A DNA stretch of 64,000 bases from Pirellulales bacterium (GTDB taxonomy: Bacteria > Planctomycetota > Planctomycetia > Pirellulales > UBA1268): assembly GCA_028066355.1 (NCBI GenBank), contig JALCBP010000003.1:69746-133745 (forward strand). The letters are read 5' to 3'. Below are positions 24,565 through 47,341 of the stretch, piece after piece. A model generated the notes under the pieces. That model saw only the letters and a program-made list of their open reading frames with translations, was not told the DNA's origin and did not search any database. Position 1 is the stretch's first letter, and the number at the start of each line of letters is the position of its first letter. A program made the translations under genes and the position numbers.

Positions 24565-27159
24565 CTATTCTCGCGTGAGTGCTTCATCAAGATTCAGGAT
24601 TGCGAGACAGACATGCGATAATGCAGCGAGCGGCACAGGGTCAGAGAACTTCTCTTTTGCGTGCGTATCTTCGCCAAGGAATGTGTGTGCTGACTCAATG
24701 CTTATCTGAGAGTGTTGATTTGTGAACATATCTGCAAGAATGGCATGTTCCGATAGTGTTGGCTGCCGGCATAGAACGGTACGAAATGCAAAAGCAATCT
24801 GCTCATCAAGCGTATTCCGGCTTGCAATGCACCGCTCGGCAAGAGAGCGGGCTGCCTCAACCCATGTTGGGTCGTTTAGAGTCGTCAGTGCATGGAGTGG
24901 CGTACATGTTTGGTTGAGACGAACGGTGCATGTGCGACGGTTGGCAGAATCGAACATATTGGCTGGTGCAACAGTTCGTCGCCAGAAGGTATAGATGCTT
25001 CGGCGATAGAGGTCTGTTCCGGTCGATTGAGGGTAGGTGAAATCCCGTTCTTTCGTAATTGCCAGTGATTCCCAGATCTGATCAGGCTGGTATGGGTATA
25101 CCGGAGGGCCTCCAATCTCTTCACTGAGTAGACCACTACACGCGAGTGCCCAATCACGTAAAACCATTGCAGGCATCCGAAAACGACTGGCACGCCCATG
25201 AAGTCGATTTTCTGGATCCTTCTCTAGTTGGTCGGCATTTATCTTGCTTGTTTGCCGATACGTTGCGCTCATGAGAAGTAATTTATGCATGGACTTCTGG
25301 CTCCAGCCTTGTTTTTGGAATTCAATTGCAAGCCAATCAAGAAGAGCAAGGTGCCGTGGGTATTCACTTTGCACGCCCATGTCTTCTGTCGTCTTGACAA
25401 GACCAGTGCCGAAAAAATGTTGCCACATCCGATTGACTTGAACACGAGCTGTAAGCGGATGATCTGGGAGAAACAACCATTGTGCCAGTCCTAGCCGATT
25501 TTTTGGAAACGTGTCAGGTAAGGGTGGCAGGTTTGCCGGCGCTGCGAAAGTAAGAGCGTCACCGATTGGTGAGAGATAGTCACCTCGATCAAGCACACGT
25601 GTTTCTCGTGGCTTGTCATCGTTCATAATCATGACTCGTGGAATCTTATCACCGCTAAACAAATCATGAGCCTGCTTGGCTTTTTCATACTCAGTAACGA
25701 CTGAGACATGTTTTGTGACTGACCTCCTCACTTTCGTATCAAAAAAGTTTCGCAGGCCACTTTCGATTTTTTTCTTTTCAGCATCGGATAGCGTGTCTTT
25801 TGGCTTTCGGAGTAACGGTGTGAGTGACCGTGGAAGGTCTTTTCCATCTGCAGCCTGCCCGTCAGAGAACAAGCCTGACTTCCACGCTGTATATGCAACG
25901 TCAATAATTGGCTTTGCATCTTTCTCAAGGAGTCTCATGTTCTGTTTAAACTGTGACAACTGTTTTTTTTGATCAGCTGTAGCCACTTCTAGAAACGGTG
26001 TGGCAACACGTATACGAGTTGACTGTCGGCCGGGGCGCCCAGTTTCTGAGACCTGATTGAAGACGTGGAGCAACCGGTAATAATCGGACTGCGTCAAAGG
26101 ATCATACTTGTGGTCATGGCACTGTGCGCATGCCATCGTGAGACCAAGCCAGGTTGTGCTTGTTGTGTCAACCCGATCGAAAAGGTTGTTAAATCGCTGT
26201 TCTTCGGCAATTGCACCTCCTTCACCATTCAAAAGATGATTCCGGTTAAATGCAGTAGCAATTTGTTGCTGTTGTGTTGCGTCCGGCAAAAGGTCTCCTG
26301 CAAGTTGCTCAATTGAAAACTGATCGAATGGCATGTCGTCATTCAGTGCATTGATCACCCAATCTCTCCAGATCCATTGCCATGTGTCACCATCCTGTTG
26401 AAAACCATTGCTATCGGCAAAGCGAGCGGCATCGAGCCATGCCATTGCCATGCGTTCACCATAGTGTTGACTGGCCAACAAGTGATCGACCAACTGTTCA
26501 TAGGCATCTGGTGACTGATCCGTGAGAAATTCATCGACTTCTTCTTGTGATGGTGGAAGCCCAATAAGATCAGCATAAAGACGTCTAATTAATGTTTCCC
26601 TACTGGCTTCCGGTGACGGTGTAAGACCCACGTTTTCAAGTTCAGCAAGAATAAAATTATCGACAGAATTTTTTGGCCAATACTGAAGCGTTGGGGTGTC
26701 AATCAATGGTGGCATTTTCTGAACAGGAGCGACAAACGCCCAGTGTGTTTGATACGTGGCCCCTTCATGAATCCATCGCGTAAGCATTTTTTTGTCACGC
26801 TGAGAAAGATGCCGATTCGAGTCCGGTGGTGGCATAAGAAGATCACTATCATCGGAATGGATGCGATCGATGATCAAACTCCCGGAAGGATCAAGAGCCC
26901 CAGCATCTAATGCTGATTGTCGTTGATCGAGACGAAGATCAGCTTTTCGTTTGTTTGGGTCTGGCCCGTGACAGTAGAAACAGTTTTCAGCGAGTATCGG
27001 ACGAATGTCTCGATTAAATTCAAGTGTTTGAAGCGTGGTGTCGTCAGATGCGACCGTAATACCATTGAGAACGAGAGCAAGGAAACACCAGCTCGAACAA
27101 AGAGAAGTCAGCTTTCTTTGCAACGTTTTGGTGCCTTTGTTTGACATGTGATTTTTCAA
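24565..27159 (-). CDS. PSCyt/DUF1549/DUF1553 protein (planctomycete cytochrome-c-domain family)
   Basis: 864 aa with a signal anchor. CFYCHGPD heme-type CxxCH lies near the N-terminus (nt 26968-26982), and a second CAQCHDHKYDP motif is characteristic of DUF1549. The DUF1553-like C-terminal half ends in LNLDEALTRE. Confidence 0.9.
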   Translation of the reverse strand: MKNHMSNKGTKTLQRKLTSLCSSWCFLALVLNGITVASDDTTLQTLEFNRDIRPILAENCFYCHGPDPNKRKADLRLDQRQSALDAGALDPSGSLIIDRIHSDDSDLLMPPPDSNRHLSQRDKKMLTRWIHEGATYQTHWAFVAPVQKMPPLIDTPTLQYWPKNSVDNFILAELENVGLTPSPEASRETLIRRLYADLIGLPPSQEEVDEFLTDQSPDAYEQLVDHLLASQHYGERMAMAWLDAARFADSNGFQQDGDTWQWIWRDWVINALNDDMPFDQFSIEQLAGDLLPDATQQQQIATAFNRNHLLNGEGGAIAEEQRFNNLFDRVDTTSTTWLGLTMACAQCHDHKYDPLTQSDYYRLLHVFNQVSETGRPGRQSTRIRVATPFLEVATADQKKQLSQFKQNMRLLEKDAKPIIDVAYTAWKSGLFSDGQAADGKDLPRSLTPLLRKPKDTLSDAEKKKIESGLRNFFDTKVRRSVTKHVSVVTEYEKAKQAHDLFSGDKIPRVMIMNDDKPRETRVLDRGDYLSPIGDALTFAAPANLPPLPDTFPKNRLGLAQWLFLPDHPLTARVQVNRMWQHFFGTGLVKTTEDMGVQSEYPRHLALLDWLAIEFQKQGWSQKSMHKLLLMSATYRQTSKINADQLEKDPENRLHGRASRFRMPAMVLRDWALACSGLLSEEIGGPPVYPYQPDQIWESLAITKERDFTYPQSTGTDLYRRSIYTFWRRTVAPANMFDSANRRTCTVRLNQTCTPLHALTTLNDPTWVEAARSLAERCIASRNTLDEQIAFAFRTVLCRQPTLSEHAILADMFTNQHSQISIESAHTFLGEDTHAKEKFSDPVPLAALSHVCLAILNLDEALTRE

Positions 27160-31985: not shown

Positions 31986-32163
31986 AACAACCTATTTTCC
32001 CGGAATAACGAATTTGTTCCCGTAAACATCGGTTAAAGTAGGCTTACCCAGTCTGCGATGCTTAACCTATTGGTGTAGCCTCCGAATTTTGCCGACGACT
32101 CTTAGGCAGCAAAAGAGGAATTTGCTCAGAATCTACGCGTATCCATGCTTCATAACGGAATAT

Positions 32164-33309
32164 ATGTCACCCACTGTTATTAATCTCAAGGAGTCTGATG
32201 ATCTGCGTGATGTGGTGCATCGCGTGGTGCAAGCGCTTGCTGAAGGAAAAGTCGTTGGAGTACCAACTGAATCGAACTATTGCATAGCTGCTGCGGGTAC
32301 ACATGAGACTGCTGTTAGAAAAGTTTGTGCGTTCGCCGATGCTGTAGAGCATGAGCCCCAACTGACTATTGCCATAAAGAGCAGTGATGAAGCGACTGAC
32401 TGGGCACCAGCAATGACACCACTTGCTTTGCGATTTGCACGACAATGCTGGCCAGGTCCTTTGTCGATGCTGGTGTCCGGGAATCATCCAGATGGTTTGG
32501 TGCATCAACTACCAGTGTCGACCCAACCGTATGTTTTGTGTGATAACCGTATTCGCTTGCGAGCGCCGAGGCATCGGATGCTGCAGGACTGCATGCGACT
32601 TTTTGCGGGCCCTGTTGTGCTTGCAGAGCCTAGTGGAAGCACGGAGCCGCCTAAGACGGTTACAGATCTTTTGGATTTTTGTGGACAAGATAAGAAGTCA
32701 TTCCTTGTCATAGATGATGGCAGACAGCCAATTCAGGAACTCGTTTCAACAATTGAAATCCATGCTACTGGTTTTCAGATTATTCGTGGCAACACGTTCA
32801 GTAAGGAAGAGCTTCAAGATTTTGCACGCTTTACAGTACTTTTCGTTTGTACGGGAAACACCTGTCGCAGTCCGATGGCCGAAGCATTGTTTCGTGCGAA
32901 AATAGCGGAAAAATTAAATTGTTCGACTGAGGAAATCCGGGACCGCGGTTTTGAGGTCAAAAGTGCCGGCTTATCTGGTTGGGGAGGGAGTCCGGCAAGC
33001 GAGAAGGCGTTTCAAACGATGAAACAATCAGGCATTGATTTGAGTGGTCACACCAGCCAAATATTGACAGAAGAGTTACTTGAAAAAGCAGCCATTGTGT
33101 GGACGATGACATCTGCCCATCGGGCAGCAATTCTCGGCCAGTTTCCGAACTTTGCTGACCGGGTTCACATGCTATCTCCTACAAATCAAGACGTGTTGGA
33201 TCCGTTTGGAGGGACTGCAGAAGCCTACAATCAGTGTGCTCAGCAAATCCGTGAGCATCTTGACGCGCGAATGGATATACTGGATTTCCGAAGTTCGCTG
33301 GAACAGTAA
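32164..33309 (+). CDS. Fusion protein: YrdC/Sua5-like domain + low-molecular-weight protein (Tyr/Arg) phosphatase
   Basis: The N-terminal half has the YrdC-fold blocks VGVPTESNYCIAA and CWPGPLSMLV. The C-terminal half has the LMW-PTP P-loop VLFVCTGNTCRSPMAEALFR and the DP loop (VLDPFGG). The ATG at 32164 is preferred over the listed TTG at 32089. Confidence 0.8.
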   Translation: MSPTVINLKESDDLRDVVHRVVQALAEGKVVGVPTESNYCIAAAGTHETAVRKVCAFADAVEHEPQLTIAIKSSDEATDWAPAMTPLALRFARQCWPGPLSMLVSGNHPDGLVHQLPVSTQPYVLCDNRIRLRAPRHRMLQDCMRLFAGPVVLAEPSGSTEPPKTVTDLLDFCGQDKKSFLVIDDGRQPIQELVSTIEIHATGFQIIRGNTFSKEELQDFARFTVLFVCTGNTCRSPMAEALFRAKIAEKLNCSTEEIRDRGFEVKSAGLSGWGGSPASEKAFQTMKQSGIDLSGHTSQILTEELLEKAAIVWTMTSAHRAAILGQFPNFADRVHMLSPTNQDVLDPFGGTAEAYNQCAQQIREHLDARMDILDFRSSLEQ

Positions 33310-33868: not shown

Positions 33869-34141
33869 AAACTCTGGCAAGCCTCAAAATCTGCCCAAAA
33901 TAGCAGTATCCGGTACCAGAAAACTAATTGTGGTAACGTCGGTGAAATGTGCTGATTTTGAAGGCCAACGAAGACTTGTCGTGTCGTAACGGTCATGCCG
34001 AAACACAGACAGATTTTCTCAGTAAAATGAGCTTTCAATTTGTTGCGTCGCCAACTCACGTTGGTAATGTCGGGGGTAGGGAAAAACAACATTGTTGTTC
34101 CCCGCGATTCCTTGATTCCGCCGCCTTCATTAGGTCGCACC

Positions 34142-34759
34142 ATGAATTTCACAAACGCACCGACTCCCGAAGAAGTGTCATGTCTTCTGCAGAATGCAGC
34201 ATTGCGAGACGCAATCGAGCCATTCTTAGAGGATGAAACATTTGGTGATATCGATTTTTTTGAAATGCCTACGGAGGTAGAGAATCGTTATCTTGAATCG
34301 ATGTTGGCTTGGGAGCAGGCGCCAGTTTTGCCTGTCGGCCGCTGGTTCAATCCCTCACTTGTGTTGCAACCGTCTTGTAATCTGAGTGAAGAACATCTTC
34401 GGGAAGAGTTGTGGGCGGTTATCGAAAGACTCTACCAAGGTCGAATTATTCTCGACTTTACGGACCATCTTTCAGATCATGAACTTTACAATCTGATCCG
34501 GAAAGAAATCCTTCCAACGGCAATCAAGCGTGTTGATTTACCGGATAATTATTTCCACTGGGATTGTAGCGTTGCAGGTCGAGTTCCTGAAATTTCTGAT
34601 GGCGAATGGTACCCAGAACCTGTGATCGATTCATTGATTTGGCTTACGTACTACGCCGACAATGCCGAGCGAAGTGAGTGGGAGGTTGAATATGGCATTG
34701 ATCTTCCCCCAAGAGAGATTCCACCATACCCGCGAGCCATGCCATCCGCACCAGTATGA
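34142..34759 (+). CDS. Hypothetical cytoplasmic protein
   Basis: Open frame with no motif I recognise. The ATG at 34142 (MNFTNAPTPEE) is preferred over the upstream alternative start at 34040. Acidic and Trp-rich. Confidence 0.4.
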   Translation: MNFTNAPTPEEVSCLLQNAALRDAIEPFLEDETFGDIDFFEMPTEVENRYLESMLAWEQAPVLPVGRWFNPSLVLQPSCNLSEEHLREELWAVIERLYQGRIILDFTDHLSDHELYNLIRKEILPTAIKRVDLPDNYFHWDCSVAGRVPEISDGEWYPEPVIDSLIWLTYYADNAERSEWEVEYGIDLPPREIPPYPRAMPSAPV

Positions 34760-34897: not shown

Positions 34898-36016
34898 ATG
34901 ATTGCTCACAGACTGTTTCTTGTGCCGTTGATTTGTTCACTTACCATCTGTGGTGCCTTCCAAGCGAAGGTCAAAGCGACCACACCTGAAGCAATTGAGC
35001 ACGCGATTTTCAGAGCATCGCAGTATTTGCAGGATTCTGGTCAACAGTCGGATGGAAGTTTCTCACCCAAAAGTGGTCCGGCAATTACCGCCCTTTGTAT
35101 CACTGCACTTGTTCGGACCGGAACGGCTATTGATAGCCGAATGGTGTCGCGAGCAGTTGCATACCTTCTTACGTTTCAGCAATCGGATGGTGGCATCTAT
35201 CAGCCTGAATCAGCAGTTGCAAATTATGAAACATCAATTGCCATACTTGCTCTTCACGAGTGCAATAGTTCCGGTCAATACGAGGAAATAATCCAAAAAG
35301 CCAGGCAGTTTCTCACGGTGATACAGTGGGATGAAAGTGAAGGAAATACGTATGCTGATCCTGAGTATGGTGGAGCCGGATACGGACGACACGAGCGACC
35401 AGATCTATCTAATACCGCCTTTCTCATCGATGCCTTGAAAGGTGTGGGAGCCAGTTCAGATGACCCTGCCATCCAGCGTGCGTTGATTTTTGTCTCGCGA
35501 TCTCAAAACCTTGAGGGCGTCTACGACATACTCGATGTTGCAAACAAAAATCCAGATGGTGGCTTTTTTTATACGCCAGCAAATGGGGGTGAGAGTCAGG
35601 CTGGCACAACACCAACTGGTGGTTTGCGCAGCTATGGGTCAATGACATACTCTGGGTTGAGGAGTATGATCTATGCTGGTGTTTCAGCAGATGATCCCCG
35701 TGTGGTTGCAGCGATAGAATGGCTTAAACGACACTACACCTTTGCAGAAAACCCTGGCATGGGTGATGCTGGTTTGTTTTACTATTTCCACACAGCTGCT
35801 AAGGCACTTCATGTTCTGGGGCAGGATCAAGTTATAGGTATTGATGGGAAAGCCCATGACTGGCGAAAAGATCTGGTGGGTGCTCTTCTTAGTAGCCAGA
35901 ACGAAGATGGCTCATGGGTGAATAACAACTCCCGATGGCTGGAAGGTGATGCTAATTTGGTAACGAGCTACGCACTGCTCGCACTGAGTTACTGTCAGCC
36001 ATCTATCAGTAAGTAG
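34898..36016 (+). CDS. Secreted prenyltransferase/squalene-oxidase-repeat (terpenoid-cyclase-fold) protein
   Basis: Signal peptide. Repeated Q.SDGS/GW units (QQSDGSFSP, QQSDGGIYQ, KNPDGGFFY, SQNEDGSWVN) are typical of alpha/alpha-toroid prenyltransferase-like repeats. Confidence 0.7.
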   Translation: MIAHRLFLVPLICSLTICGAFQAKVKATTPEAIEHAIFRASQYLQDSGQQSDGSFSPKSGPAITALCITALVRTGTAIDSRMVSRAVAYLLTFQQSDGGIYQPESAVANYETSIAILALHECNSSGQYEEIIQKARQFLTVIQWDESEGNTYADPEYGGAGYGRHERPDLSNTAFLIDALKGVGASSDDPAIQRALIFVSRSQNLEGVYDILDVANKNPDGGFFYTPANGGESQAGTTPTGGLRSYGSMTYSGLRSMIYAGVSADDPRVVAAIEWLKRHYTFAENPGMGDAGLFYYFHTAAKALHVLGQDQVIGIDGKAHDWRKDLVGALLSSQNEDGSWVNNNSRWLEGDANLVTSYALLALSYCQPSISK

Positions 36017-36371
36017 GCCGATTTGGTCGTTCCGTAAGTGAGCCTGATCATAGGTTGTGGACTCACATTCTGAGCATTACTGCGTTCAAAGCCTTATATT
36101 CACGGAACGCCTGTGGGATCGTCACATTGTGTGGGATGAGACATATCCCCTATGTATCCCCACTTCCATGCAAAAATTATGAAACTGATTTCACAAATCG
36201 AATATGTTACCGACGGTTAAAAAAACAGATTTTCCCTCGAATTGGTGGGTAATGAGCGAGATGAACACCCTATGGCTTAAATTTTAGACGATAGAAAAAA
36301 GCTTTATTTTAAGTCGAATCGTTTTCCTCGAGTGAAATTGTGACCGGGACTCAAAAAAATCAGAAAAAGAC

Positions 36372-36399
36372 TTGACGTCTTCACCGACAAGCCTATCAT
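36372..36399 (+). promoter_or_regulatory. Candidate sigma70-type promoter of the DUF1559-led operon
   Basis: TTGACG (36372-36377), a 16-nt spacer, then TATCAT (36394-36399). Each hexamer matches the consensus at 5/6. This implies a leader of about 165 nt before the ATG at 36570. Confidence 0.5.
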
Positions 36400-36402
36400 A
36401 AA

Positions 36403-36416
36403 TGAAACCGGTTTCT
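36403..36416. promoter_or_regulatory. Candidate LacI-family operator O1 (TGAAACCGGTTTCT)
   Basis: 14-bp CG-centred palindrome, 13/14 symmetric, starting 4 nt after the -10 hexamer so that it covers the expected transcription start. A near-identical site lies upstream of the lacI-like gene at 43959-43972. Confidence 0.55.
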
Positions 36417-36569
36417 TGTGGCGGACCGAATAGGGGTATTTGCAAGAAAACGGTTCCAAACGGGGTCGTGGCAGTTTGGCCTTTTCACGTCTTTGAACTT
36501 CATCACGATTTGCCAGACGTCTCAATCTGCATTTAACGCGTTCTTCACTTTTCTCAAAGGAGCTAAATC

Positions 36570-37604
36570 ATGGGGATGAAAACTGTGAGCCGACGGGGCT
36601 TCACGCTTATCGAACTTCTCGTAGTTATTGCAATTATTGGTGTGCTTGTTGGCCTTCTCCTACCAGCTGTGCAGCAGGCTCGCGAAGCTGCGCGGCGTAA
36701 CAGTTGCGGCAACAACCTCAAACAACTTTCTCTTGGTTGTTTGAATTATGAGTCGACAAACCAAAGCTTTCCTTCTGCTGGAGGACAAGCACAAACATTC
36801 TGGGGCACTGGAGAAATCAACAACCCGGCATCATCCAGAGAAAACGGTGGTTGGGCTTATCAGATTCTTCCCTACACGGAACAAATGAACGTCTATGAAC
36901 TTCGTAAGAGTGGCGGATGGAACGCGATTCTTGATGCCGAGATTCTTGAGCACACATGTCCTTCCCGTGGACTTCGCTTTACAGACAACGGTGCAGACGT
37001 GTTTCATTTAACTGACTATGCAGGCTGCATGACTGCAGAACCTGATTGGGCGGGAGCCGCCCGGGTCTGGGAAAACTGGAAGGCCAATGATCCCAATGAA
37101 GAAGCAAATGTCTGGACAGGTACAATTAAGAAGGGAACGCACAATGCTTGGCTTGGTGGCTCGTCACCAACGTGTGTCCCATATAAACGGGTGAGTTTTG
37201 CTGAAATTACAGATGGTTCAAGTAATACGATACTGCTTGCTGAGAAGTCAGCTTGGGGGCAGAACTATCAGATGACTGGTGGTGGCGCCATGTGGTGGGA
37301 AGATCCAGGTCGTTTTGCACCGAGTGATTGGGGTTCTATTCGTTACTTCGGTACAAATAACTTCGGTACTCCCCGAGGAGATTTTCAGGAGCGTCCTTGG
37401 GGCTGGTGGTTCCAGTATGGACAGGGAAGTAATGGCGAGACACGAATTGTCGAGCAAGGTTTCGGTTCGGCACATCCTGGTGTTTTCTCTGCCAGCATGA
37501 GCGATGGATCAGTAAAAACGATTCCTTTCAATGCTGACATTCAAGTGCTTATCAATCTGGCCAAACGCAACGATGGTAATGTAGCCAGTGCGAATGATCT
37601 GTAG
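36570..37604 (+). CDS. DUF1559 protein with prepilin-type N-terminal methylation motif
   Basis: [37 protein letters not shown] is identical over 37 aa to the paralogue at 21698-22561. The C-terminal GSAHPGVFSASMSDGSVKTIP block is DUF1559-like. AAGGAG lies upstream. Confidence 0.85.
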   Translation: MGMKTVSRRGFTLIELLVVIAIIGVLVGLLLPAVQQAREAARRNSCGNNLKQLSLGCLNYESTNQSFPSAGGQAQTFWGTGEINNPASSRENGGWAYQILPYTEQMNVYELRKSGGWNAILDAEILEHTCPSRGLRFTDNGADVFHLTDYAGCMTAEPDWAGAARVWENWKANDPNEEANVWTGTIKKGTHNAWLGGSSPTCVPYKRVSFAEITDGSSNTILLAEKSAWGQNYQMTGGGAMWWEDPGRFAPSDWGSIRYFGTNNFGTPRGDFQERPWGWWFQYGQGSNGETRIVEQGFGSAHPGVFSASMSDGSVKTIPFNADIQVLINLAKRNDGNVASANDL

Positions 37605-37671
37605 TTGTTCAACATGGGATTACGGTGGCGTCAGTTGTCGTGCTGACGCCACCAACTTACAGGGGAAAAAA

Positions 37672-38196
37672 ATGAATAAAAAGTTTCTGTTGGGTGTTTT
37701 TTCATTGTTATTTGTGATTCCTGGATGTGGTGACGGACGTGCTACTCCGGAACAACGTATACAAAACGCTAATCCGAGTAATGTTTTTCGTCTAACGAAT
37801 CTTTACAACCAGTTCAGCCAAATTCGAAATCGTGGTCCAAAAGACGAGAAAGAGTTCCGTCTTTTCATCGAGAATTTTGGTGACAAAAGGCTAGATCGAA
37901 TGGGTGTGTCTTTAGACAATCTTGACAACCTATTCGTGAGCGAAAGAGATTCCCAAAAATTTGACATCGCATATGGAGAGAGGCCGAAACGCGAAAAGGG
38001 TGTTACGGAAGACCCGGGAGATCTGGATGAAGGAAAAACGCTGTCTCGGGAGGAGAGAGAAAAAGGTCCTTCATTGGCATCACTTGGGTTGCCAGTAATT
38101 TTTGAGACAACTGGCGTTGATGGAAAAAAGAACGTTGGCTTTCTCGGAAGCCGTGTTGTTCGTGAGCTGACAGAAGCGGAAATTAGTTCACTTTGA
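37672..38196 (+). CDS. Small lipoprotein (hypothetical)
   Basis: The ATG at 37672 is preceded by AGGGGAAAAAA. The leader MNKKFLLGVFSLLFVIPGCGDG has a lipobox. The mature part is charged and Lys/Glu-rich. The listed ORF start at 37588 overlaps the upstream gene and is less likely. Confidence 0.55.
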   Translation: MNKKFLLGVFSLLFVIPGCGDGRATPEQRIQNANPSNVFRLTNLYNQFSQIRNRGPKDEKEFRLFIENFGDKRLDRMGVSLDNLDNLFVSERDSQKFDIAYGERPKREKGVTEDPGDLDEGKTLSREEREKGPSLASLGLPVIFETTGVDGKKNVGFLGSRVVRELTEAEISSL

Positions 38197-38403: not shown

Positions 38404-41400
38404 ATGAGCATTGCCAATAATCAGAGATCAGAACGGTCTCCAGAAAAAATTGGTACTACCACAAATAACGAGGAACCGTATCTCAGCTATGTTTTGCCAG
38501 GAGAGACTGGTAATAGCTTTGCTAACATTAAAGCGGTAGATCAGATTCCTCCATTTCTCATGACGGTACTTAGCAGTGATGATCACTGGATGTTTCTTTA
38601 TAGTAACGGTGCAGTGACATGTGGACGGAAAAATGCAGACCATGCCTTGTTTCCGTACTACCCAGCGGATGCTCTATTGGCTCTCAAAAATGCAGTAGGG
38701 CCGAAGACGATAATTTGGGTTCATCGCGATGAAGACGTTACCTGCTGGGAACCCTTTGGAGAGCAAGAAAGTCTTTTCCATGTTGACCGTGAACTCTCCA
38801 AAAATTTGATTGGTGACAAGGTCTGTTTCCAAGAGCACAATGAAACACTTGGGTTAAGTTTCTGGTATGAGTGGTCAGTAAGCGCCCGTTATGGTTTTGT
38901 GCGCACTGCTGGAATAACGAACCATAATGAGCAGGACTGTAGAGTAACGGTCTGCGATGGTGTCCACGGAATACTGCCAGCGGGTGTTGGGCATATTTTT
39001 CAGCAGCGATACAGCAACCTCGCTGATGCATATAAACAATCTGAACTCATCCAGGGTTTAGGAGTGAGTGTTCATTCGTTGAGTTCAATACCAGTTGACC
39101 GGCCCGAAGCCAGTGAAGCTTTGCGGAGTACTGTAGCTTGGACTCCGTCGTCGAGTCCGTCAACGAAGTTTCTCCTCTCAGATGATCAAATTAATCTGTT
39201 TCGTGATGGGATGACTGTCAGGACTGAGTGCACAAAGCGTGGGGTAAAGCCAGCCTTCTACAGGGTCGACGAATATAGTTTGTCTGCTGACGAGAACATA
39301 GAATGGAATATTGTTTGTGATGTCGCTGTTGATGCTTGTGACCTTCACGATCTACGTCGCTCACTGCAGAAAGGCAATATCTCAGATGTGAGTATTAAGG
39401 ACGATATATCACAAACCAATGCTGAGTTACATGCATTTGCAGGCCGAGTTGATGGACTTCAGTACTCAGGAGACGAGGCAGAGTCTCATCGTCACCTTTC
39501 GAATGCGTTACTAAACATTATGCGAGGCGGCATTCCACTTGATGGGTACACTATACGACGGAATGATTTTTTACGGCATGTAGAAAAGCGGAATAAAGAC
39601 TGCTTTAGAGAGAACAGAAACTGGTTGGAAATACTCCCGCAATCGCTCCAAAAAAGTGAACTTCTGGATGAGTGTAGGAGGCAGAGTTGTAAAGATATTG
39701 ATCGAATTGCTACTGAGTTTTTACCTCTTACTCTAAGCAGACGTCACGGTGACCCATCAAGGCCCTGGAATAGTTTCTCTATTCCGTCGCGGAATAAAGA
39801 TGGTGAGAGACAAATCGGTTTTGAGGGCAACTGGAGAGATGTCTTTCAAAATTGGGAAGCGCTCGCCGATTCTTTTCCTCAACTACTGGAGGGAATGGTT
39901 TATCGGTTCGTAAATGCGTCCACAGTCGATGGGTATAATCCATACCGTATCCAACTTGATGGTATCGATTGGGAACAGCCTGACCCGAATGATCCTTGGG
40001 CAACGATTGGGTACTGGGGCGATCATCAAATTATTTATTTGCATCGTTTGCTCTCACGTTACAGGAACTACTTTCCAGAAAATCTCAGGCAAGATTTAAC
40101 CGCTGATCGGTGTGTGTATGTTGATGTGCCCTACCGACTCAAGCCATTTGAAGAGATTCTAAAAACGCCAGGTGATACAGTAATTTTTGACGCTGCGGCG
40201 AATGATTCGCTTCGACGGAACATACAGTCGAGTGGATCAGATGCAGTCCTTGTGAGAAACGTTGATAAGAAGATTCATTATGTGTCACTCGCCGAGAAGT
40301 TACTGCTAACATCCCTGGTGAAGGTTTCAAATTTTGTTCCCGGGGCAGGGATCTGGCTTAGTACACAGCGACCCGAGTGGAACGATGCCCTAAATGCACT
40401 TGCGGGTAAGGGCGCATCTGTTATTACGGCATGCCACTTAAAGGTTTTTCTTGAGAGACTTGATGAACTGTTTGAGGACGTGAGTGAAAAAAGTATTCGA
40501 ATCTCTTATGAAGTTTCTCAATTTCTGCAATCCATTATATCGGTTCTTGATGGTTGCAGACTGTTTTCTGGTAGAACGATAGATTCGATAACGCGTCGAT
40601 TTACTTTAGCTGGCCTACAAAAAGCTGCAGAGACTTATAGGGAAACGGTGTACAGTGGTTTCTCTGGTAAGAGAACCGATGTTGCTATAGCAGATATTCG
40701 GCGGTTCTGTCTCAGAGCGATTCATGTCCTTGAGGAGACGATACGAGGTAACCGGCGTTCGGATGGTCTTTATGAATCCTACAATTGGGTCTGTGTGGGT
40801 GATGAGGCAATTCATATTGCTCCAGTTGGGCTTATGTTAGAGGGTCAAGTAGCGATTCTGGAGTCCAATGTGCTTTGCCAAAAAGAAGTTGTTGAACTTC
40901 TGAATGCCTTGGAAAAAAGTGATCTGTATCGTCCTGACCAAGACAGTTATTTGTTGTACCCGAACCAAGCAGAAAAAAAGTTTTCTGAAAAAAATCAGAT
41001 TCCTCAAGAGTGGTTTAAAAATAATTCAATAGCACGAAGAGTGATTGATGCTGGGGGCTGTGACCTGCTCTGCCAAAACGAAGATGGGGGATTGCATTTT
41101 GCGAGTGATCTCCGAAACAATGCCGATCTGAATGCGAAGATAGACTTGTGGAATAACACAGAGAACCAGTGGGAATTTACACAAGAGGATCGCAGGCAAA
41201 TATCAAATCTTTGGGAAGCCGTCTTCCACCATGAAACTTTTTCTGGAAGAGCTACAAATTTTTATGCATATGAAGGCCTTGGAAGTATTTATTGGCACAT
41301 GGTTTCAAAGCTTGTCCACGCAGTTGCCCAACAAATTCAAACAAGACAGTTTCGAGGTGAGCCAGTAATTCCAGAACTTAAAGAACACTTCTTTAAGATT

Positions 41401-41898
41401 CGAAATGGTGTTTGGAAAAGTAAATCTGTTCGCTCGTATGGTGCCTTTCCCTCAGATCCTTATTCACATACACCAGCTCATGCAGGTGCCCAGCAACCAG
41501 GTATGACAGGACAGGTAAAAGAAGATTTACTTACACGACTACTAGAACTCGGTATTGTTATTTGTGAAGGCCGTATTTATTTTGAAAATGTAATTCTGGA
41601 TCACTCTGAATTCCAAAGCATGCCGGGGCAGTTTCAATATTACGATGTTGACGGGAATCGAGCCAGCATTGATCTTGATGCTGGATTATTTGGATTTACG
41701 TTTTGCCAGGTCCCGATAATTTACGCAACTAATGGTCGAGGCCGGGGTATTCGGATTATATCACGATCAGGCGGAGAGGTGATTCGAAACCGTATGCGTC
41801 TGACAAAGCAGGAGTCAGAGGCGATCTTCAATCGCACGGGTAACATTGTAAGAATTGATGTGGGTGTCGAGTGCCCGCAGGGTGATGGTAGAGGCTGA
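38404..41898 (+). CDS. 1164-aa leaderless protein, putative GH94-like (alpha/alpha)6 glycoside phosphorylase/hydrolase-fold enzyme
   Basis: Long uninterrupted ORF with no signal peptide. EWNDALNALAGKGASV (nt 40375-40422) resembles the catalytic DWND..N....GKGESV block of GH94 enzymes as I recall it. GNWRDVFQNWE (nt 39826-39858) resembles their RD..Q block. The ORF call is firm. The fold and function call is tentative. Confidence 0.5.
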   Translation: MSIANNQRSERSPEKIGTTTNNEEPYLSYVLPGETGNSFANIKAVDQIPPFLMTVLSSDDHWMFLYSNGAVTCGRKNADHALFPYYPADALLALKNAVGPKTIIWVHRDEDVTCWEPFGEQESLFHVDRELSKNLIGDKVCFQEHNETLGLSFWYEWSVSARYGFVRTAGITNHNEQDCRVTVCDGVHGILPAGVGHIFQQRYSNLADAYKQSELIQGLGVSVHSLSSIPVDRPEASEALRSTVAWTPSSSPSTKFLLSDDQINLFRDGMTVRTECTKRGVKPAFYRVDEYSLSADENIEWNIVCDVAVDACDLHDLRRSLQKGNISDVSIKDDISQTNAELHAFAGRVDGLQYSGDEAESHRHLSNALLNIMRGGIPLDGYTIRRNDFLRHVEKRNKDCFRENRNWLEILPQSLQKSELLDECRRQSCKDIDRIATEFLPLTLSRRHGDPSRPWNSFSIPSRNKDGERQIGFEGNWRDVFQNWEALADSFPQLLEGMVYRFVNASTVDGYNPYRIQLDGIDWEQPDPNDPWATIGYWGDHQIIYLHRLLSRYRNYFPENLRQDLTADRCVYVDVPYRLKPFEEILKTPGDTVIFDAAANDSLRRNIQSSGSDAVLVRNVDKKIHYVSLAEKLLLTSLVKVSNFVPGAGIWLSTQRPEWNDALNALAGKGASVITACHLKVFLERLDELFEDVSEKSIRISYEVSQFLQSIISVLDGCRLFSGRTIDSITRRFTLAGLQKAAETYRETVYSGFSGKRTDVAIADIRRFCLRAIHVLEETIRGNRRSDGLYESYNWVCVGDEAIHIAPVGLMLEGQVAILESNVLCQKEVVELLNALEKSDLYRPDQDSYLLYPNQAEKKFSEKNQIPQEWFKNNSIARRVIDAGGCDLLCQNEDGGLHFASDLRNNADLNAKIDLWNNTENQWEFTQEDRRQISNLWEAVFHHETFSGRATNFYAYEGLGSIYWHMVSKLVHAVAQQIQTRQFRGEPVIPELKEHFFKIRNGVWKSKSVRSYGAFPSDPYSHTPAHAGAQQPGMTGQVKEDLLTRLLELGIVICEGRIYFENVILDHSEFQSMPGQFQYYDVDGNRASIDLDAGLFGFTFCQVPIIYATNGRGRGIRIISRSGGEVIRNRMRLTKQESEAIFNRTGNIVRIDVGVECPQGDGRG

Positions 41899-41929: not shown

Positions 41930-42442
41930 ATGAGGAATAGTGGAATGATTCAAAAATTAAACCGGATGAAACTTCGCTGGTGTGTTCTTCTCGTTCTTGT
42001 AGCAGTTCTATCAAGTGTAAAATCCGATTTGCTGGCACAAGACTTCGGTGATAGTAAATCATCGACTTTGGTGACGAAAGCTTGGGAAGCGTTGGCAGCA
42101 GGTGAGCATGACAATGTTACTGCGTACACAAAGAAGTGTTGTGAGCTCTACCAAGACGAAGCAAAAAAACAGCAGAGTTCACTCTCTGATTTTGCAGGTG
42201 GGGACGACGATAAAATTCACTCATATTGGGCTCTGAATGATGTAGGAACAATCTTATTTGTTCAAGGAGAGTCACTATCGCAGCAAGGAAAATCTTCTGA
42301 GGCAGTGGAGGCTTACAAGAGCCTTGTTGATGACTACGGGTTCTGTCAGTGCTGGGACCCTCAAGGCTGGTTTTGGAAGCCATCAGAAGCTGCAGTAGCA
42401 AAAATAAAGGAATTAGATTTTGACGCACAACTGGATGATTAG
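41930..42442 (+). CDS. Small secreted helical (TPR-like) protein
   Basis: Signal peptide (LRWCVLLVLVAVLSSVKSDLLAQ) followed by a helical repeat-like region (SSEAVEAYKSLVDDYG). The start could be 41930, 41945 or 41966. It begins 31 nt after the giant gene and overlaps the next gene by 8 nt. Confidence 0.45.
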   Translation: MRNSGMIQKLNRMKLRWCVLLVLVAVLSSVKSDLLAQDFGDSKSSTLVTKAWEALAAGEHDNVTAYTKKCCELYQDEAKKQQSSLSDFAGGDDDKIHSYWALNDVGTILFVQGESLSQQGKSSEAVEAYKSLVDDYGFCQCWDPQGWFWKPSEAAVAKIKELDFDAQLDD

Positions 42443-43781
42443 AACTCAAATAGTTAAAAGCATCCTCGACAACGTTACATTTCTGTTTCTCTGCGCTCTT
42501 GTTGCACAAACAAGTGTAGCTGCTGATGGATCACGGGTCAGGATTCGTGGCAGTGCCAAAGATGGCTACCAACTGTACGTCAATGAAGAACACTTTGTGA
42601 TCAGGGGTGTTGGTGGGACATCACATATTGAATTACTCGCTTCATGTGGTGGTAACGCGATTCGGACATGGGATGCTGCATCAGCAGAGAAGAAAGTTGA
42701 CGGTAAGTCTCTCCTCGATCATGCGTATGACAAGAATATTTTTGTCACAGTTGGATTGTGGCTTGGTCATGAACGACATGGCTTTCGTTATGACGATCCA
42801 AATTCAATTACTCAGCAACGTGATGAGGTAGTTAACGCGATAAAAAGGCTGAAGAACCACCCAGCACTGCTATGTTGGGGTTTGGGAAATGAAATGGAAG
42901 GCCCTGATGGCAAGGGAGACAGTGTTCAGATTTGGAAAGAGGTAAACACACTCGCCAGCCTCGTTAAGAAACACGATCCGGACCATCCCGTAATGACTGT
43001 GGTGGCAAATGTGAATGATGCGAAGTTAGCCGCCATAAAAAAGTATGCACCACTCATCGATATTCTTGGAGTGAATGTTTATTCCGGATCAGTTGGAATG
43101 GACAAGACTCTTCGAGATCTTGGGTGGGAAAAACCATATTGTGTGAGTGAATATGGTCCTCCTGGTCCTTGGGAGGTCGCGTCAACAACCTGGAAAGCAC
43201 CTCTAGAGCCGTCGAGCCGAAGTAAGGCATCAACCTATTTTGCTGCAACATCTTCTATCTTGGATGCGACTTCAAAAGATGGTTCGCAAGTTGGACAGAA
43301 ATACTGTCTGGGTGGTTATGCATTTTTGTGGGGGCACAAACAGGAGACAACGGCAACCTGGTTCGGCATGCTCCTTCCTACTGGTGAAAAAACACTTGTC
43401 GTCGATGCGATGACCAAAGCATGGACTGGATCATGGCCTCGAAATAGAGCACCGATTCTGCAGAGCAACAGGATCACTTTCGCCGGTAAGAGAGTAGGTC
43501 CCGGTGAAATTCTCGATGCACATGTGGAATACCGTGACCCTGACAGTGACGATTTGTCGTACATATGGGAGATCGTAAAAGAAAGTACCGATCGGAAAAT
43601 TGGAGGTGACGCTGAAAAACGGCCAGACATTATTGAGAGTCGAGTTATTGATGGCTCTGGTTCTGATCAGATACGAATTCAGGCGCCACAGAAAACGGGT
43701 GGTTATCGACTATTTGTGACTGTTCGTGATGGACATGGATCTGGTTGTAGTGAAAATTGGCCATTCTTTGTGAGTCCCTAA
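42435..43781 (+). CDS. Secreted clan GH-A-like (TIM-barrel) glycoside hydrolase with C-terminal beta-sandwich domain
   Basis: Signal peptide (FLFLCALVAQTSVAADG). LCWGLGNEMEG is a candidate acid/base NE motif and PYCVSEYGPPG a candidate nucleophile Glu. The final ~100 aa look like an Ig-like domain. The ATG at 42435 overlaps the upstream stop (ATGATTAG). Confidence 0.6.
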   Translation: MIRTQIVKSILDNVTFLFLCALVAQTSVAADGSRVRIRGSAKDGYQLYVNEEHFVIRGVGGTSHIELLASCGGNAIRTWDAASAEKKVDGKSLLDHAYDKNIFVTVGLWLGHERHGFRYDDPNSITQQRDEVVNAIKRLKNHPALLCWGLGNEMEGPDGKGDSVQIWKEVNTLASLVKKHDPDHPVMTVVANVNDAKLAAIKKYAPLIDILGVNVYSGSVGMDKTLRDLGWEKPYCVSEYGPPGPWEVASTTWKAPLEPSSRSKASTYFAATSSILDATSKDGSQVGQKYCLGGYAFLWGHKQETTATWFGMLLPTGEKTLVVDAMTKAWTGSWPRNRAPILQSNRITFAGKRVGPGEILDAHVEYRDPDSDDLSYIWEIVKESTDRKIGGDAEKRPDIIESRVIDGSGSDQIRIQAPQKTGGYRLFVTVRDGHGSGCSENWPFFVSP

Positions 43782-43958
43782 AGAGCTGTGTACCCATCCG
43801 AACATTCTTAACATGATGAGCAGATGTTCTGATGAAGAGCATGAAAGCATTGTTCCCCACGTCAGGAAACAGTTGCGATTGTTCCACGTATGCCCCGTGA
43901 CAAGTAAAAGGGCATTTGCTTTGCCACTTAATGCGCTTTCAGACGAATTAGATTGCTA

Positions 43959-43972
43959 TGAAACCGGTTCCA
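43959..43972. promoter_or_regulatory. Candidate LacI-family operator O2 (TGAAACCGGTTCCA), autoregulatory
   Basis: 13/14 symmetric palindrome sharing TGAAACCGGTT with O1. It exactly fills the 17-nt spacer between a weak TTGCTA (43953-43958) and TATTTT (43976-43981), about 110 nt upstream of the lacI-like ATG. Confidence 0.5.
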
Positions 43973-44085
43973 GTCTATTTTAGAATGACACTCAGTAACC
44001 AGATAGCGGCAAGGTTTACTTCCAAAAAGGGAGTGAAGTGAAAATCGCCTAATGAGCTTTGTGCCTGGCAATCAAGAAAATAACC

Positions 44086-45132
44086 ATGATCAATCGAGAG
44101 ACTCACCAATCGCAATCAGCAGAGACAGTGCGAGACGGTGTCACGATTGATGATATAGCAAAACGGGCGAATGTATCAAAAAGTACAGTTTCAAGAGTTT
44201 TAAATGGGACTGCTGTCGTCAATGAACAGAAACGATCTGCCGTTCATCAGGCCATCGCTGAACTAGACTACAAGCCGAATGTGTTTGCTCAGGGTCTGGC
44301 GAGTGGAAAGTCAATGACGCTTGGCATCTTGACCCAAAATATTGGTAGTCCTTTCTACGATACAATTGCCCAGGGAGCCATTGAAGGCTTAGCAGGCTCA
44401 GGCTATACCCCAATTTTTGTTGACGGAAGATGGGAGCACGCTAGAGAAGCGGCTGCAATTGAGACACTTATTTCAAGAAAAGTTGACGGATTGCTTGTTG
44501 TTGGTGGTGACATTGATGCATCAGAACTTCAGTCCTACAAAACACAACTACCACTTATTGTTGCTGCAAGAGACATAGAGGGCCTCGAAGAACAATGTGT
44601 CTCAGTCAATAACAAACAGATTGGATATCTGGCAACGAAACATCTTTTGGAACAGCGGCATACACGGATTGCATTTATTCATGGAATAGAGGGTCACCCC
44701 GATGCTCAGAATCGTTTTGTAGGTCACCTTGAAGCGATTCAAGAGGCAGGCCTCAGTTTATCTGATGAACTTGTTTATCAAGGTGACTTTAGTGGGCATG
44801 CGGGACTCATGGCCATCAATTACTTTCTTGATCAAGGCATTTGCTTTAGTGCAATAGTTGCTGCAAATGATATGGTTGCATTTGGTGCAAGACTTGCCCT
44901 CTATCGAAGGGGCATCCGAGTTCCAGATGATGTTTCTATTATAGGTTGCGACGACCAGGCGGAGGCAGCCTTTATGACGCCGCCGCTCACAACGGTGCGG
45001 CAGCCCTCGTACGAAATGGGTGTGGCTGCCTCTAAAGCCCTTATTGCCTTGATAGGCAAGAAAAACTATGAGTGGCCTGCGTTGAATCCGGAATTGCAAA
45101 TTCGTGAAAGCGTCAAGCGTTTTACAAGTTAA
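44086..45132 (+). CDS. LacI-family transcriptional repressor
   Basis: HTH VTIDDIAKRANVSKSTVSRVLNG, the hinge region, then a periplasmic-binding-protein-like sugar-binding core (PDDVSIIGCDD, LTTVRQP). The ATG at 44086 is preferred over the TTG at 44059. Confidence 0.9.
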   Translation: MINRETHQSQSAETVRDGVTIDDIAKRANVSKSTVSRVLNGTAVVNEQKRSAVHQAIAELDYKPNVFAQGLASGKSMTLGILTQNIGSPFYDTIAQGAIEGLAGSGYTPIFVDGRWEHAREAAAIETLISRKVDGLLVVGGDIDASELQSYKTQLPLIVAARDIEGLEEQCVSVNNKQIGYLATKHLLEQRHTRIAFIHGIEGHPDAQNRFVGHLEAIQEAGLSLSDELVYQGDFSGHAGLMAINYFLDQGICFSAIVAANDMVAFGARLALYRRGIRVPDDVSIIGCDDQAEAAFMTPPLTTVRQPSYEMGVAASKALIALIGKKNYEWPALNPELQIRESVKRFTS

Positions 45133-45173: not shown

Positions 45174-46448
45174 TTACTCTTTCAAATCAAAGAGTCGCCT
45201 TAACGCTTCAAGGAGTCCGTGAGGTGGCCCAGCCTTACTTTCACTTCGTAAGGAAGCCATAGGAGGATGGAGCATTTTCGCTGCATACCTTTCGAACGAC
45301 TGTCGTATTTCTTGCCGACTATTTGAATCAAGTTTTGGAAGCTTTCGAAAAAGTCGATCAAGTTCTGCTTCACCTGTTTCATTCCATCCTGCTCGTAGTT
45401 GTTCAATGACCGGAGCAGTTGACCGATGATGCATGTCGCCCATGAACCGACGAGTTTCTTCATCAACAATTGTGAGTGCTGCAGGAAGTTGCTTTTGTCT
45501 TCTGCGTCGATTGGAATCGCAGGCCTGACCAAGGTCATCAATTGAGTAAAGCCAAACTCCAGGCTGGGTGCCGATGCGTGAATCGAAGTCTCGAGGAACC
45601 GCAAGGTCAAGAACAACAAGGGGGCGTCCCTCTCTCTGATCTTGAATTTTTTGGAAGAGGTCTAGCGTGACTACGGGTTCTGTGGCACCAGTCGTACTCA
45701 CAACAAGATCTGCATTTACAAGTTCATGAGACATGTTGTCGAAATCACCAATTTGAGCTTCAAGTCGTTGTGCCAGACTGTGAGCCCGCTTCATGGAGCG
45801 ATTAATAATTCGAATGTTCTGTGACCCGGCGTCACGAAGATAACGAAGGGTTTCAGCCGCCATTTTGCCGGCACCAATGAGAAGTACCTGTTTGTCATCA
45901 AATCGTTCAAACACACCACTGGCAAAATCAGCGACCGCGATACTTGGGATTGATAAACGTTCTCGTCCGACAGCTGTTTCAGTTGTTACGCGTTTTGCAG
46001 CTCGTAAGGCGGCCTGAAAGAGTTCTCCAGTAAGAGGACCAGTTGTTCCACTATTTTGAGCAAGCTGCCATGCCTGTTTGACTTGTGCAACTATCTGAGG
46101 CTCACCAAGAACCATGCTGTCGAGTCCTGCTGCAACACAAAATAAGTGCTTCACAGCAGCCGATCCTTGCTCTCCACCAAGAACTTTTCCGGCATTGATA
46201 GGATCGACACCTCGGCATTCTGCTAAAAACATCGCTAATTCATCTGGTGGAGGTGGCCCTCGGCGTTCCTCGTCGGCAGCGTACAACTCAATGCGATTGC
46301 AGGTTGACAAAAGGACCGCTTCACTTCCGGGGAACTGCTTCCGAAAGCGAACCAGTGCCTCGGTTGCTTGCTCTGATGAAAAAGCCAGTTTTTCACGTAG
46401 CTCAATTGGGACAGTACGGTGACTTCCTCCTGCGAAGGCGAGGCTCAT
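45174..46448 (-). CDS. hemA: Glutamyl-tRNA reductase
   Basis: SLAFAGGSHRTVPIELREKLAF, LSTCNRIELY (catalytic Cys) and LLIGAGKMAAET (NADPH fold). The ATG at 46448 overlaps the upstream stop as ATGA. The listed longer ORF start at 46535 lies inside the upstream gene. Confidence 0.9.
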   Translation of the reverse strand: MSLAFAGGSHRTVPIELREKLAFSSEQATEALVRFRKQFPGSEAVLLSTCNRIELYAADEERRGPPPPDELAMFLAECRGVDPINAGKVLGGEQGSAAVKHLFCVAAGLDSMVLGEPQIVAQVKQAWQLAQNSGTTGPLTGELFQAALRAAKRVTTETAVGRERLSIPSIAVADFASGVFERFDDKQVLLIGAGKMAAETLRYLRDAGSQNIRIINRSMKRAHSLAQRLEAQIGDFDNMSHELVNADLVVSTTGATEPVVTLDLFQKIQDQREGRPLVVLDLAVPRDFDSRIGTQPGVWLYSIDDLGQACDSNRRRRQKQLPAALTIVDEETRRFMGDMHHRSTAPVIEQLRAGWNETGEAELDRLFRKLPKLDSNSRQEIRQSFERYAAKMLHPPMASLRSESKAGPPHGLLEALRRLFDLKE

Positions 46449-47341
46449 AAAGCGTCTCCAACAGGCTTGGTTATGACCGAAGTATGCTTCTGTGAAGGAG
46501 TAAGTCCGTGCTGCGTAGTTCCAAGTACTCCCCATAAGATTGAAAATGTGAGCAGTGTAAGGCTAACAAGTGACAGCAGTGCTATGACTCTTCGGCCTAT
46601 CGCCCGCTGTCGCATCGCTCGTGATGTACCAGCCACAAACGTGAGCCAAGCAACGAGTGCGCCCATGCGTAGAACAACAGGGTCTGTCCATGGTACGCTC
46701 CCCAAAAGACCGCGTTGCTGATTGACAATATTCAAAATTATTCCTGAAAGAAAGCCAAGGCTGCCTGATACTGCGGCAGTCACGGCCATTCGTGATGACC
46801 AGTTCGATAGCTTTTCCAAACTGGGCATACGAAATCCTTGCAGTGGGGCCTGCTTCCTCGCAAGTCGTCCAGCCTGAATAAGCCACATGCCACCCGCGAG
46901 GCCACCAAGTACCACAGCGACGCTCATAACAAGATTGAAGCTTCCGTGAATAACACCCCAAATTTGTGTTGCAGGACTCTGTGGAAATGGTTCTCGGCTT
47001 GAAAGTTCAGCAACTCCAATAAGAGCTAATACGGCGGGTAGCACAAAAAGCCCAACTGGTGTCCGAGGATTTGAGACTGTCATCCAAAGAGATCCAGCCG
47101 CTAAAAGCCAGGCAGCAAGAAGATACCAATCAAACTCACTCGATAATGGTACCGAAGGAAGTGTGGTCGATCTCCAGATAAGATAGAGGCTGTGTGCAAC
47201 CAGGCCGGCAGTCACAAAACCAATCATTGTGATGCCTCGAACTCCCGACCGAAACCATAGCCGGCTTGCCTCAAATATGAGTGCGACACCATAGCTGGCG
47301 GCAAAGCAAACAACAGAAATTCGCGAGATGAAATCAGTCAT
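46445..47341 (-). CDS. HemX/CcsA-like polytopic membrane protein (cytochrome c assembly family)
   Basis: 298 aa with about 8 hydrophobic segments. It is translationally coupled to hemA (4-nt overlap). Family assignment rests on topology and context only; I did not see a clear WWD motif. Confidence 0.45.
   Translation of the reverse strand: MTDFISRISVVCFAASYGVALIFEASRLWFRSGVRGITMIGFVTAGLVAHSLYLIWRSTTLPSVPLSSEFDWYLLAAWLLAAGSLWMTVSNPRTPVGLFVLPAVLALIGVAELSSREPFPQSPATQIWGVIHGSFNLVMSVAVVLGGLAGGMWLIQAGRLARKQAPLQGFRMPSLEKLSNWSSRMAVTAAVSGSLGFLSGIILNIVNQQRGLLGSVPWTDPVVLRMGALVAWLTFVAGTSRAMRQRAIGRRVIALLSLVSLTLLTFSILWGVLGTTQHGLTPSQKHTSVITKPVGDAL

Follow-up and report, generated by a model that had tools for sequence, protein, structure and literature searches.

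The stretch of DNA analysed here comprises 64,000 nucleotides (nt) of contig JALCBP010000003.1 from a Pirellulales bacterium (positions 69,746 to 133,745 of the forward strand). It is referred to below as the window, and its own coordinates are used throughout. The subject of this report is a single, uninterrupted open reading frame (ORF) at 38404..41898 (+) that encodes 1164 amino acids (aa). The ORF very probably encodes a predicted cytoplasmic beta-1,3-glucan (laminari-oligosaccharide) phosphorylase of family GH149, clan GH-Q. The GH149 protein is typical of this established CAZy family, for which structures have been solved, and it introduces neither a new enzyme family nor a new mechanism. 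Its interest lies chiefly in its genetic setting, if a linked DUF1559 pseudopilin-like protein does have a role in beta-glucan capture or uptake.

The NCBIfam equivalog model NF058639 (1,3-beta-D-glucan phosphorylase, GH149 family) matched aa 36-1155 on profile positions 14-1133 of 1134, with a score of 1318.1 bits (E=0) against a cut-off of 1150 bits. The best match obtained by phmmer in the PDB was 6HQ6/6HQ8 (E=5e-273; aa 27-1155 against chain residues 39-1169). These entries are structures of the bacterial GH149 enzyme Pro_7066 (PMC6771811), which is a beta-1,3-glucan phosphorylase by experiment (PMC5827456). The alignment rebuilt from this match showed 39.9% identity over 1123 aligned residues and was free of large indels. 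At least 7995 database homologues reached E<=1e-10, most of them unnamed or annotated as 'hypothetical protein', and relatives occurred in Bacteroidota, Pseudomonadota, Verrucomicrobiota, Planctomycetota, Actinomycetota, Chloroflexota and other phyla. The closest genome copy (95% identity) was in L001, a metagenome-assembled genome of an uncultured marine Planctomycetaceae bacterium; the nearest relatives beyond this species cluster were only 44-49% identical. GH149 is hereby documented in marine Planctomycetaceae, whereas most of the occurrences in the founding paper were in Proteobacteria and Bacteroidetes.

The original prediction had described the protein as an orphan with no family-level match. 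The end-to-end match to NF058639, the 6HQ6 match and the number of homologues contradict this description. The orphan impression is explained by the lack of a GH149 model in Pfam and by the label 'hypothetical protein' on most database copies. Our Pfam scan of the protein revealed no significant family, and no GH94-type domain model was matched. A hit to NTP_transf_3 (E=0.2; 12 bits vs. a 27-bit cut-off) was taken as noise.

An AlphaFold model of the monomer was built from the family alignment and had a pLDDT of 85.8 and a pTM of 0.88. In Foldseek, the model gave template-modelling (TM) scores of 0.93/0.95 to 6HQ6/6HQ8, with a root-mean-square deviation of 2.5 Å over ~1140 columns. The next neighbours were GH161 enzymes (query-normalised TM 0.65-0.66, 14% identity), followed by GH94 phosphorylases (TM 0.43-0.59, 8-13% identity), an order that is expected within clan GH-Q. 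GH149 and GH94 both belong to this clan and have the WND and RD motifs in common (PMC5827456, PMC6771811). The earlier proposal of a GH94-related (alpha/alpha)6 glycoside phosphorylase was thus right at the clan level. Membership of GH94 itself was rejected: it is a different family of the same clan, and there was no sequence-level profile or structure match to it. None of the GH94 structures from the Foldseek list was matched by phmmer in the PDB (E<=10). Beyond 6HQ6, this search found only two near-identical chains of ~1040 aa, 9QQK (GH161) and 9H8V (deposited as 'cellobiose phosphorylase'), at ~9e-17. GH161 membership was also rejected, in view of the three fragmentary stretches of which that match consisted, the TM of 0.65-0.66, and an NCBIfam match to GH149 alone. 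The original prediction had noted that the protein was similar in size to GH149- and GH161-type enzymes. The likeness to GH149 holds (1164 aa vs. ~1156 aa in Pro_7066), but the membership behind it had been missed.

Domain layout and active site of the GH149 protein

A Shine-Dalgarno-like GGAG site lies 6 nt 5' of the ATG of the GH149 gene. The N-terminus, MSIANNQRSERSPEKIGTTTNNEEP, has no hydrophobic signal sequence; disorder is predicted for residues 1-21. The uninterrupted frame and the missing signal peptide had both been recognised earlier. Four motifs singled out at that time were all present: RHGDPSRPWNSF at aa 447-458, GNWRDVFQNWE at aa 475-485 (nt 39826-39858, as originally given), GYWGDHQIIYLH at aa 536-547 and RPEWNDALNALAGKGASV at aa 656-673. 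The RPEWND block begins at nt 40369, two codons away from the nt 40375 first reported, and D661 is the Asp of its WND motif.

The secondary structure of the model revealed the domain order beta-sandwich, helical linker, (alpha/alpha)6 domain and C-terminal jelly roll. The N-terminal beta-sandwich (aa 27-310; 38482..39333 (+)) has strands throughout in the model (DSSP) and is 39% identical to residues 20-303 of Pro_7066. It is followed by the helical linker (aa 311-348; 39334..39447 (+)), which aligns to Pro_7066 304-341 and has model helices at 311-323 and 328-348. A beta-rich N-terminal part had been predicted and is real; however, it extends for ~310 aa, not ~450 aa, the linker beginning at residue 311. 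The (alpha/alpha)6 catalytic domain (aa 349-1049; 39448..41550 (+)) is mainly helical in the model and 43% identical to Pro_7066 342-1045. The C-terminal jelly-roll domain (aa 1050-1155; 41551..41868 (+)), with model strands at 1051-1154, is 30% identical to Pro_7066 1046-1150.

Pro_7066 has four domains and, in addition, two inserts (Dom1 and Dom2) that are lacking in GH94 (PMC6771811). Both inserts were present in the GH149 protein and aligned over essentially their entire length. In Dom1 (aa 377-437; 39532..39714 (+)), 59 residues aligned to Dom1 of Pro_7066 (370-428) with 29% identity; in Dom2 (aa 858-944; 40975..41235 (+)), 86 residues aligned to Dom2 of Pro_7066 (852-938) with 19% identity. 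Dom2 is the most diverged region of the protein relative to Pro_7066, and the linker (16% identity) is also strongly diverged.

In the Pro_7066 structure, D653 of the WND loop (W651-N652-D653) is the predicted catalytic residue, R470-D471 is the RD motif, E951 touches the donor mimic, and H959 recognises phosphate (PMC6771811). Each of these residues has a counterpart in the GH149 protein. The RD motif for sugar-1-phosphate recognition is R478-D479 (39835..39840 (+)). The WND catalytic loop is W659-N660-D661 (40378..40386 (+)), in which D661 is the predicted general acid. A YEGLGSIYWH block (41272..41298 (+)) contains E957, equivalent to E951 and predicted to contact a hydroxyl of glucose-1-phosphate (Glc1P), and H965, equivalent to H959 and predicted to recognise phosphate. 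In an alignment of 66 family members, R478/D479, W659/N660/D661, E957 and H965 were all invariant, and no lineage-specific insertions or deletions of >=3 residues were observed in the GH149 protein. The equivalence of D661 to D653 supports its earlier designation as the GH94-type catalytic Asp, and the His sought for a phosphate-binding pocket is H965. The observations that would have spoken against a glycoside phosphorylase did not appear: the model has an (alpha/alpha)6 barrel, the WND Asp corresponds to the predicted catalytic Asp of the superposed Pro_7066, and the profile match is to a carbohydrate-active family.

Pro_7066 and the GH149 protein are of the same length class and have the same four-domain order, both inserts and identical RD, WND, Glu and His residues; both are without a signal peptide. 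Pro_7066, which is a homodimer in the crystal and in gel filtration, differs in 60% of residues, in its host (a probable Flavobacterium vs. a planctomycete), and in its genetic setting (a Bacteroidetes polysaccharide utilization locus [PUL] vs. a LacI / DUF1559 / GH158 cluster). EgP1 of Euglena gracilis belongs to the same family; Pro_7066 is 45% identical to it and has the same conserved catalytic residues. However, EgP1 is eukaryotic, is tied to paramylon metabolism, and has a putative targeting peptide (PMC5827456). The GH161 enzymes (9GY9, 9QQK) and the GH94 laminaribiose phosphorylase PsLBP (6GGY) share clan GH-Q, the overall fold, the catalytic apparatus and beta-1,3-glucoside chemistry with the GH149 protein, but they are only 12-14% identical to it (TM 0.59-0.66, query-normalised) and are without Dom1 and Dom2. 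GH161 needs a degree of polymerization (DP) of >=3 and GH94 laminaribiose phosphorylase acts on the disaccharide only, whereas GH149 enzymes accept DP>=2 (PMC6484121).

Gene cluster and operator-like sites around the GH149 gene

The original prediction had suggested that a neighbouring secreted glycosidase produces the substrate. This suggestion is plausible, the neighbour being a GH158 beta-1,3-glucanase. The GH158 ORF (42420..43781 (+)) encodes a 453-aa protein, predicted to be secreted, with a hydrophobic signal sequence. It matched the PDB entries 9ORO (GH158(Pro); E=1.2e-80) and 6PAL (BuGH158; E=1.3e-65), and was 40% identical to GH158(Pro). GH158 enzymes are retaining beta-1,3-glucanases that strictly need beta-1,3 linkages at the -2/-1 subsites; GH158(Pro) is processive, releases disaccharides almost exclusively, and also cuts mixed-linkage glucans (PMC13195107). 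The catalytic pair E158/E244 of the GH158 ORF aligned with acid/base E143 and nucleophile E229 of GH158(Pro). The tunnel salt bridge R119/D397 and the translocation residues W251 and E309 of the processive enzyme were also kept. Because these tunnel and translocation residues are retained, the GH158 ORF, judging from its sequence, probably encodes a processive enzyme that releases laminaribiose and not an endo enzyme like BuGH158. A GH149 enzyme acting on DP>=2 would therefore fit the laminaribiose output of GH158. Of the 72 loci fetched, 10 from several phyla had a GH158 gene no more than 10 kb from GH149. This compact GH158 + GH149 pairing is found repeatedly in different phyla and is consistent with the turnover of laminarin in the ocean carbon cycle.

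Between the two genes lies a 170-aa ORF (41930..42442 (+)), predicted to be secreted, with a signal-peptide-like N-terminus and faint TPR-like similarity. It begins after a gap of 31 nt from the GH149 gene, and its stop is overlapped by the GH158 start. It matched no Pfam family and gave only a sub-threshold NCBIfam TPR match. Among the 72 fetched loci it was seen only in the 95%-identical relative L001; its position in more distant relatives is empty or taken by other genes.

Two genes lie on the 5' side of the GH149 gene. One (36570..37604 (+)) encodes a DUF1559 / prepilin-type N-methylation pseudopilin-like protein with Pfam matches to SBP_bac_10 (1.5e-39) and N_methyl. The other (37588..38196 (+)), syntenic with the DUF1559 gene, encodes a small lipoprotein-like protein of 202 aa with a probable true start at an internal MNKKFLLGVFSLLFVIPGC; no Pfam or NCBIfam family was found for it. 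Further upstream, directly 5' of the operator region described below, a gene at 34898..36016 (+) encodes a protein of 372 aa that contains alpha-alpha-toroid repeats of the squalene-hopene-cyclase / prenyltransferase type (SQHop-like). Downstream of GH158, a LacI-family transcriptional regulator is encoded at 44059..45132 (+) (Pfam LacI, Peripla_BP_1 and Peripla_BP_3).

A similar gene order was observed in related loci. In L073, whose GH149 is 49% identical, the order is SQHop-cyclase-like, DUF1559 pseudopilin-like, ~170-aa protein, GH149, GH158, MFS_2 and LacI. In L074 and L075 (GH149 44% identical) it is LacI, DUF1559, small protein, MFS_2, GH149 and GH158-like. Comparison by tblastn with L073 and L074 gave identities of 57% and 47%, respectively, for the DUF1559 protein (full-length), 40% and 37% for the small lipoprotein-like protein (170/171-aa genes in the same position), 61% and 38% for GH158, and 76% and 50% for LacI. 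The SQHop-like protein was 63% identical in L073 and had the same position there. These findings confirmed that each component is an ortholog of its counterpart in the window, and that the DUF1559 and lipoprotein genes keep their synteny with GH149 in three planctomycete lineages with GH149 identities of only 44-49%. The DUF1559 + small lipoprotein gene pair occupies 36570..38196 (+) in the window, 2237..3869 in L073 and 4575..6245 in L074. The MFS_2 symporter (glycoside-pentoside-hexuronide type) of L073 (8682..10334) and L074 (6325..8004) had no homologue in the 64-kb window (tblastn, E<=1e-3).

LacI homologues were found within 10 kb of the GH149 gene in ~15 of the 72 fetched loci. Type I bacterial GH149 clusters consist of a transporter, GH149 and a LacI or AraC regulator (PMC5827456). 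The LacI linkage is common to these clusters and ours, and a sugar importer is present in close relatives of the latter. The importer of the Type I clusters is an ABC cassette; in contrast, the relatives have an MFS_2 symporter and the window has none. The GH158, DUF1559 pseudopilin-like and lipoprotein genes are not described in PMC5827456.

The window was searched for LacI-operator-like palindromes with the pattern TGNAANCGNTTNCA (<=1 mismatch; core TGAAACCGGTTYCA). Two such sites, TGAAACCGGTTTCT and AGAAAACGGTTCCA (36403..36416 and 36445..36458), lie 5' of the DUF1559 gene, just 3' of the best promoter-like site in the window (36372..36399; sigma-70 scan). A third (36180..36193) also lies 5' of this gene. 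A site that matches the LacI-family operator consensus TGAAACCGGTTCCA with 0 mismatches (43959..43972) lies 5' of the LacI gene and is a candidate autoregulation site; the promoter-like site 43958..43986 overlaps it. Only these two promoter-like sites, which coincide with operator-like palindromes, were used. The total count of operator-like matches in the window (6 vs. 3.55 expected) was not significant; however, 4 of the 6 fell in the intergenic DNA that flanks the cluster, which totals 830 nt (Poisson P ~2e-7). The sites keep their positions in L001, and comparable ones are grouped close to LacI homologues at other GH149 loci. Because the sites are clustered in the flanking intergenic regions and conserved in position, they suggest a LacI-controlled unit that extends from the DUF1559 gene through GH158.

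Proposed pathway and alternative explanations

We infer the chemistry from the GH149 family (EC 2.4.1.97-type) and the pathway from gene context. In laminaribiose or longer laminari-oligosaccharides (DP>=2), inorganic phosphate would attack the beta-1,3 glucosidic bond at the non-reducing end. D661 in the WND loop would act as general acid, R478/D479 and E957 would hold the -1 glucose, and H965 would recognise phosphate. The products would be alpha-Glc1P, with anomeric inversion, and a chain one unit shorter. In the pathway, the secreted GH158 would cut laminarin-type glucan outside the cytoplasm, probably mostly to laminaribiose. The oligosaccharides would be imported, the carrier being encoded in relatives as the MFS_2 symporter, and GH149 would turn them into Glc1P and glucose, with one ATP saved per bond. 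The LacI-family repressor probably governs the DUF1559-lipoprotein-GH149-TPR-GH158 unit and its own gene via TGAAACCGGTTYCA operators until an inducer is present.

Several points weigh against this reading. Identity to the characterised Pro_7066 is only 40%, and the pocket geometry of D661 is that of a model superposed on 6HQ6. Of 321 highly conserved family columns, 34 have a non-consensus residue in the GH149 protein; these changes are mostly conservative, but include N653S beside the catalytic loop and H791E. To our knowledge, only two GH149 enzymes have been characterised biochemically, and neither is planctomycetal. The YE motif of the surface oligosaccharide-binding site of Pro_7066 (E990, Y993-E994) is also missing: the GH149 protein keeps E994, and has F997 and K998 in place of Y993 and E994 of Pro_7066. 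This site characterises Pro_7066 and enzymes closely related to it, and does not define the family. Bacterial GH149 proteins of lower identity to Pro_7066 conserve the YE motif less strongly (PMC6771811); because it is variable in distant bacterial members, its loss has no bearing on GH149 membership. No sugar transporter, beta-glucosidase or phosphoglucomutase was found among the larger ORFs scanned in the window, so that no nearby gene explains the import step or what becomes of Glc1P. Finally, the sigma-70 scan found 7 sites vs. 13.7 expected from shuffles and is uninformative alone; thus, the limits of the operon follow only from spacing, synteny and operator-like sites.

The strongest alternative is a GH149-fold phosphorylase with another physiological substrate or direction, such as another beta-1,3 glycan, mixed-linkage fragments, or beta-1,3-glucan synthesis from Glc1P. 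Phosphorylases are reversible, and GH149 builds chains up to ~DP 11 in vitro (PMC5827456). The paired GH158 may point the same way, in that GH158(Pro) also accepts mixed-linkage glucans, and clan GH-Q holds enzymes for other sugars. The small number of characterised GH149 enzymes, a lineage only 40-49% identical to anything beyond its own species cluster, and the substitutions at conserved columns near the catalytic loop likewise leave room for a shift in specificity. However, the score is above the cut-off of a beta-1,3-glucan phosphorylase equivalog, all -1 subsite and phosphate residues are invariant, and the secreted GH158 belongs to a family with a strict requirement for beta-1,3 linkages at -2/-1. 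The sugar-responsive LacI and the MFS_2 importers in relatives point to catabolism, and no glucan synthase or storage genes were found nearby. We consider this alternative unlikely.

It is still less probable, to the point of being very improbable, that the protein is GH149-like but has turned into a hydrolase or a transglycosylase, or is inactive. Family membership alone is no proof of phosphorolysis. Such a change is opposed by the intact and invariant general-acid Asp, phosphate His and RD motif, and by the absence of lineage-specific indels; nor was a second carboxylate replacing the phosphate site identified. The new family of (alpha/alpha)6 phosphorylases, or protein remote from characterised enzymes, that had originally been envisaged could draw only on the missing Pfam model and the 'hypothetical protein' names of nearly all homologues, and it is refuted by the full-length curated-model match above the cut-off, by 40% identity over the full length and TM 0.93-0.95 to a crystallised and assayed enzyme, and by at least 7995 homologues with relatives across many phyla.

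DUF1559 linkage and the wider window

The phosphorylase itself is routine, and the linkage of DUF1559 to GH149 is the only non-routine lead here. DUF1559 is a very large planctomycete-specific family whose function is unknown. In the four papers found to mention DUF1559, titles and abstracts contained no link to glycan use. We suggest tentatively, and with considerable doubt, that the DUF1559 and lipoprotein partners might be the laminarin substrate-capture or uptake part of a planctomycete PUL equivalent. The synteny provides a testable genomic hint on the function of DUF1559 pseudopilin-like proteins.

The cluster is flanked by housekeeping genes, with hemA and hemE downstream, and bamA and a Sua5-LMWPc gene upstream. 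Its G+C content is 43.5-46%, vs. 46-49.5% in the flanks; recent transfer of the cluster was considered and rejected, the difference being too small to argue for it. No Pfam family matched two ORFs, at 46445..47341 (-, 298 aa) and 34040..34759 (+, 239 aa), and the 239-aa ORF was also without an NCBIfam match. Each may be a lineage-specific gene or a spurious ORF. The Sua5-LMWPc gene is a 406-aa ORF (32089..33309 (+)) that carries a Sua5/YciO/YrdC domain (aa 49-233) and a low-molecular-weight phosphotyrosine phosphatase domain (aa 250-391), an apparent fusion. The assignment of the window to a planctomycete is supported by a DUF1501 gene (23057..24505 (-)) and a PSCyt1/DUF1549/DUF1553 gene (24565..27159 (-)), which form a typical planctomycete gene pair; next to them is another DUF1559 pseudopilin-like gene (21698..22561 (-)), the second in the window.

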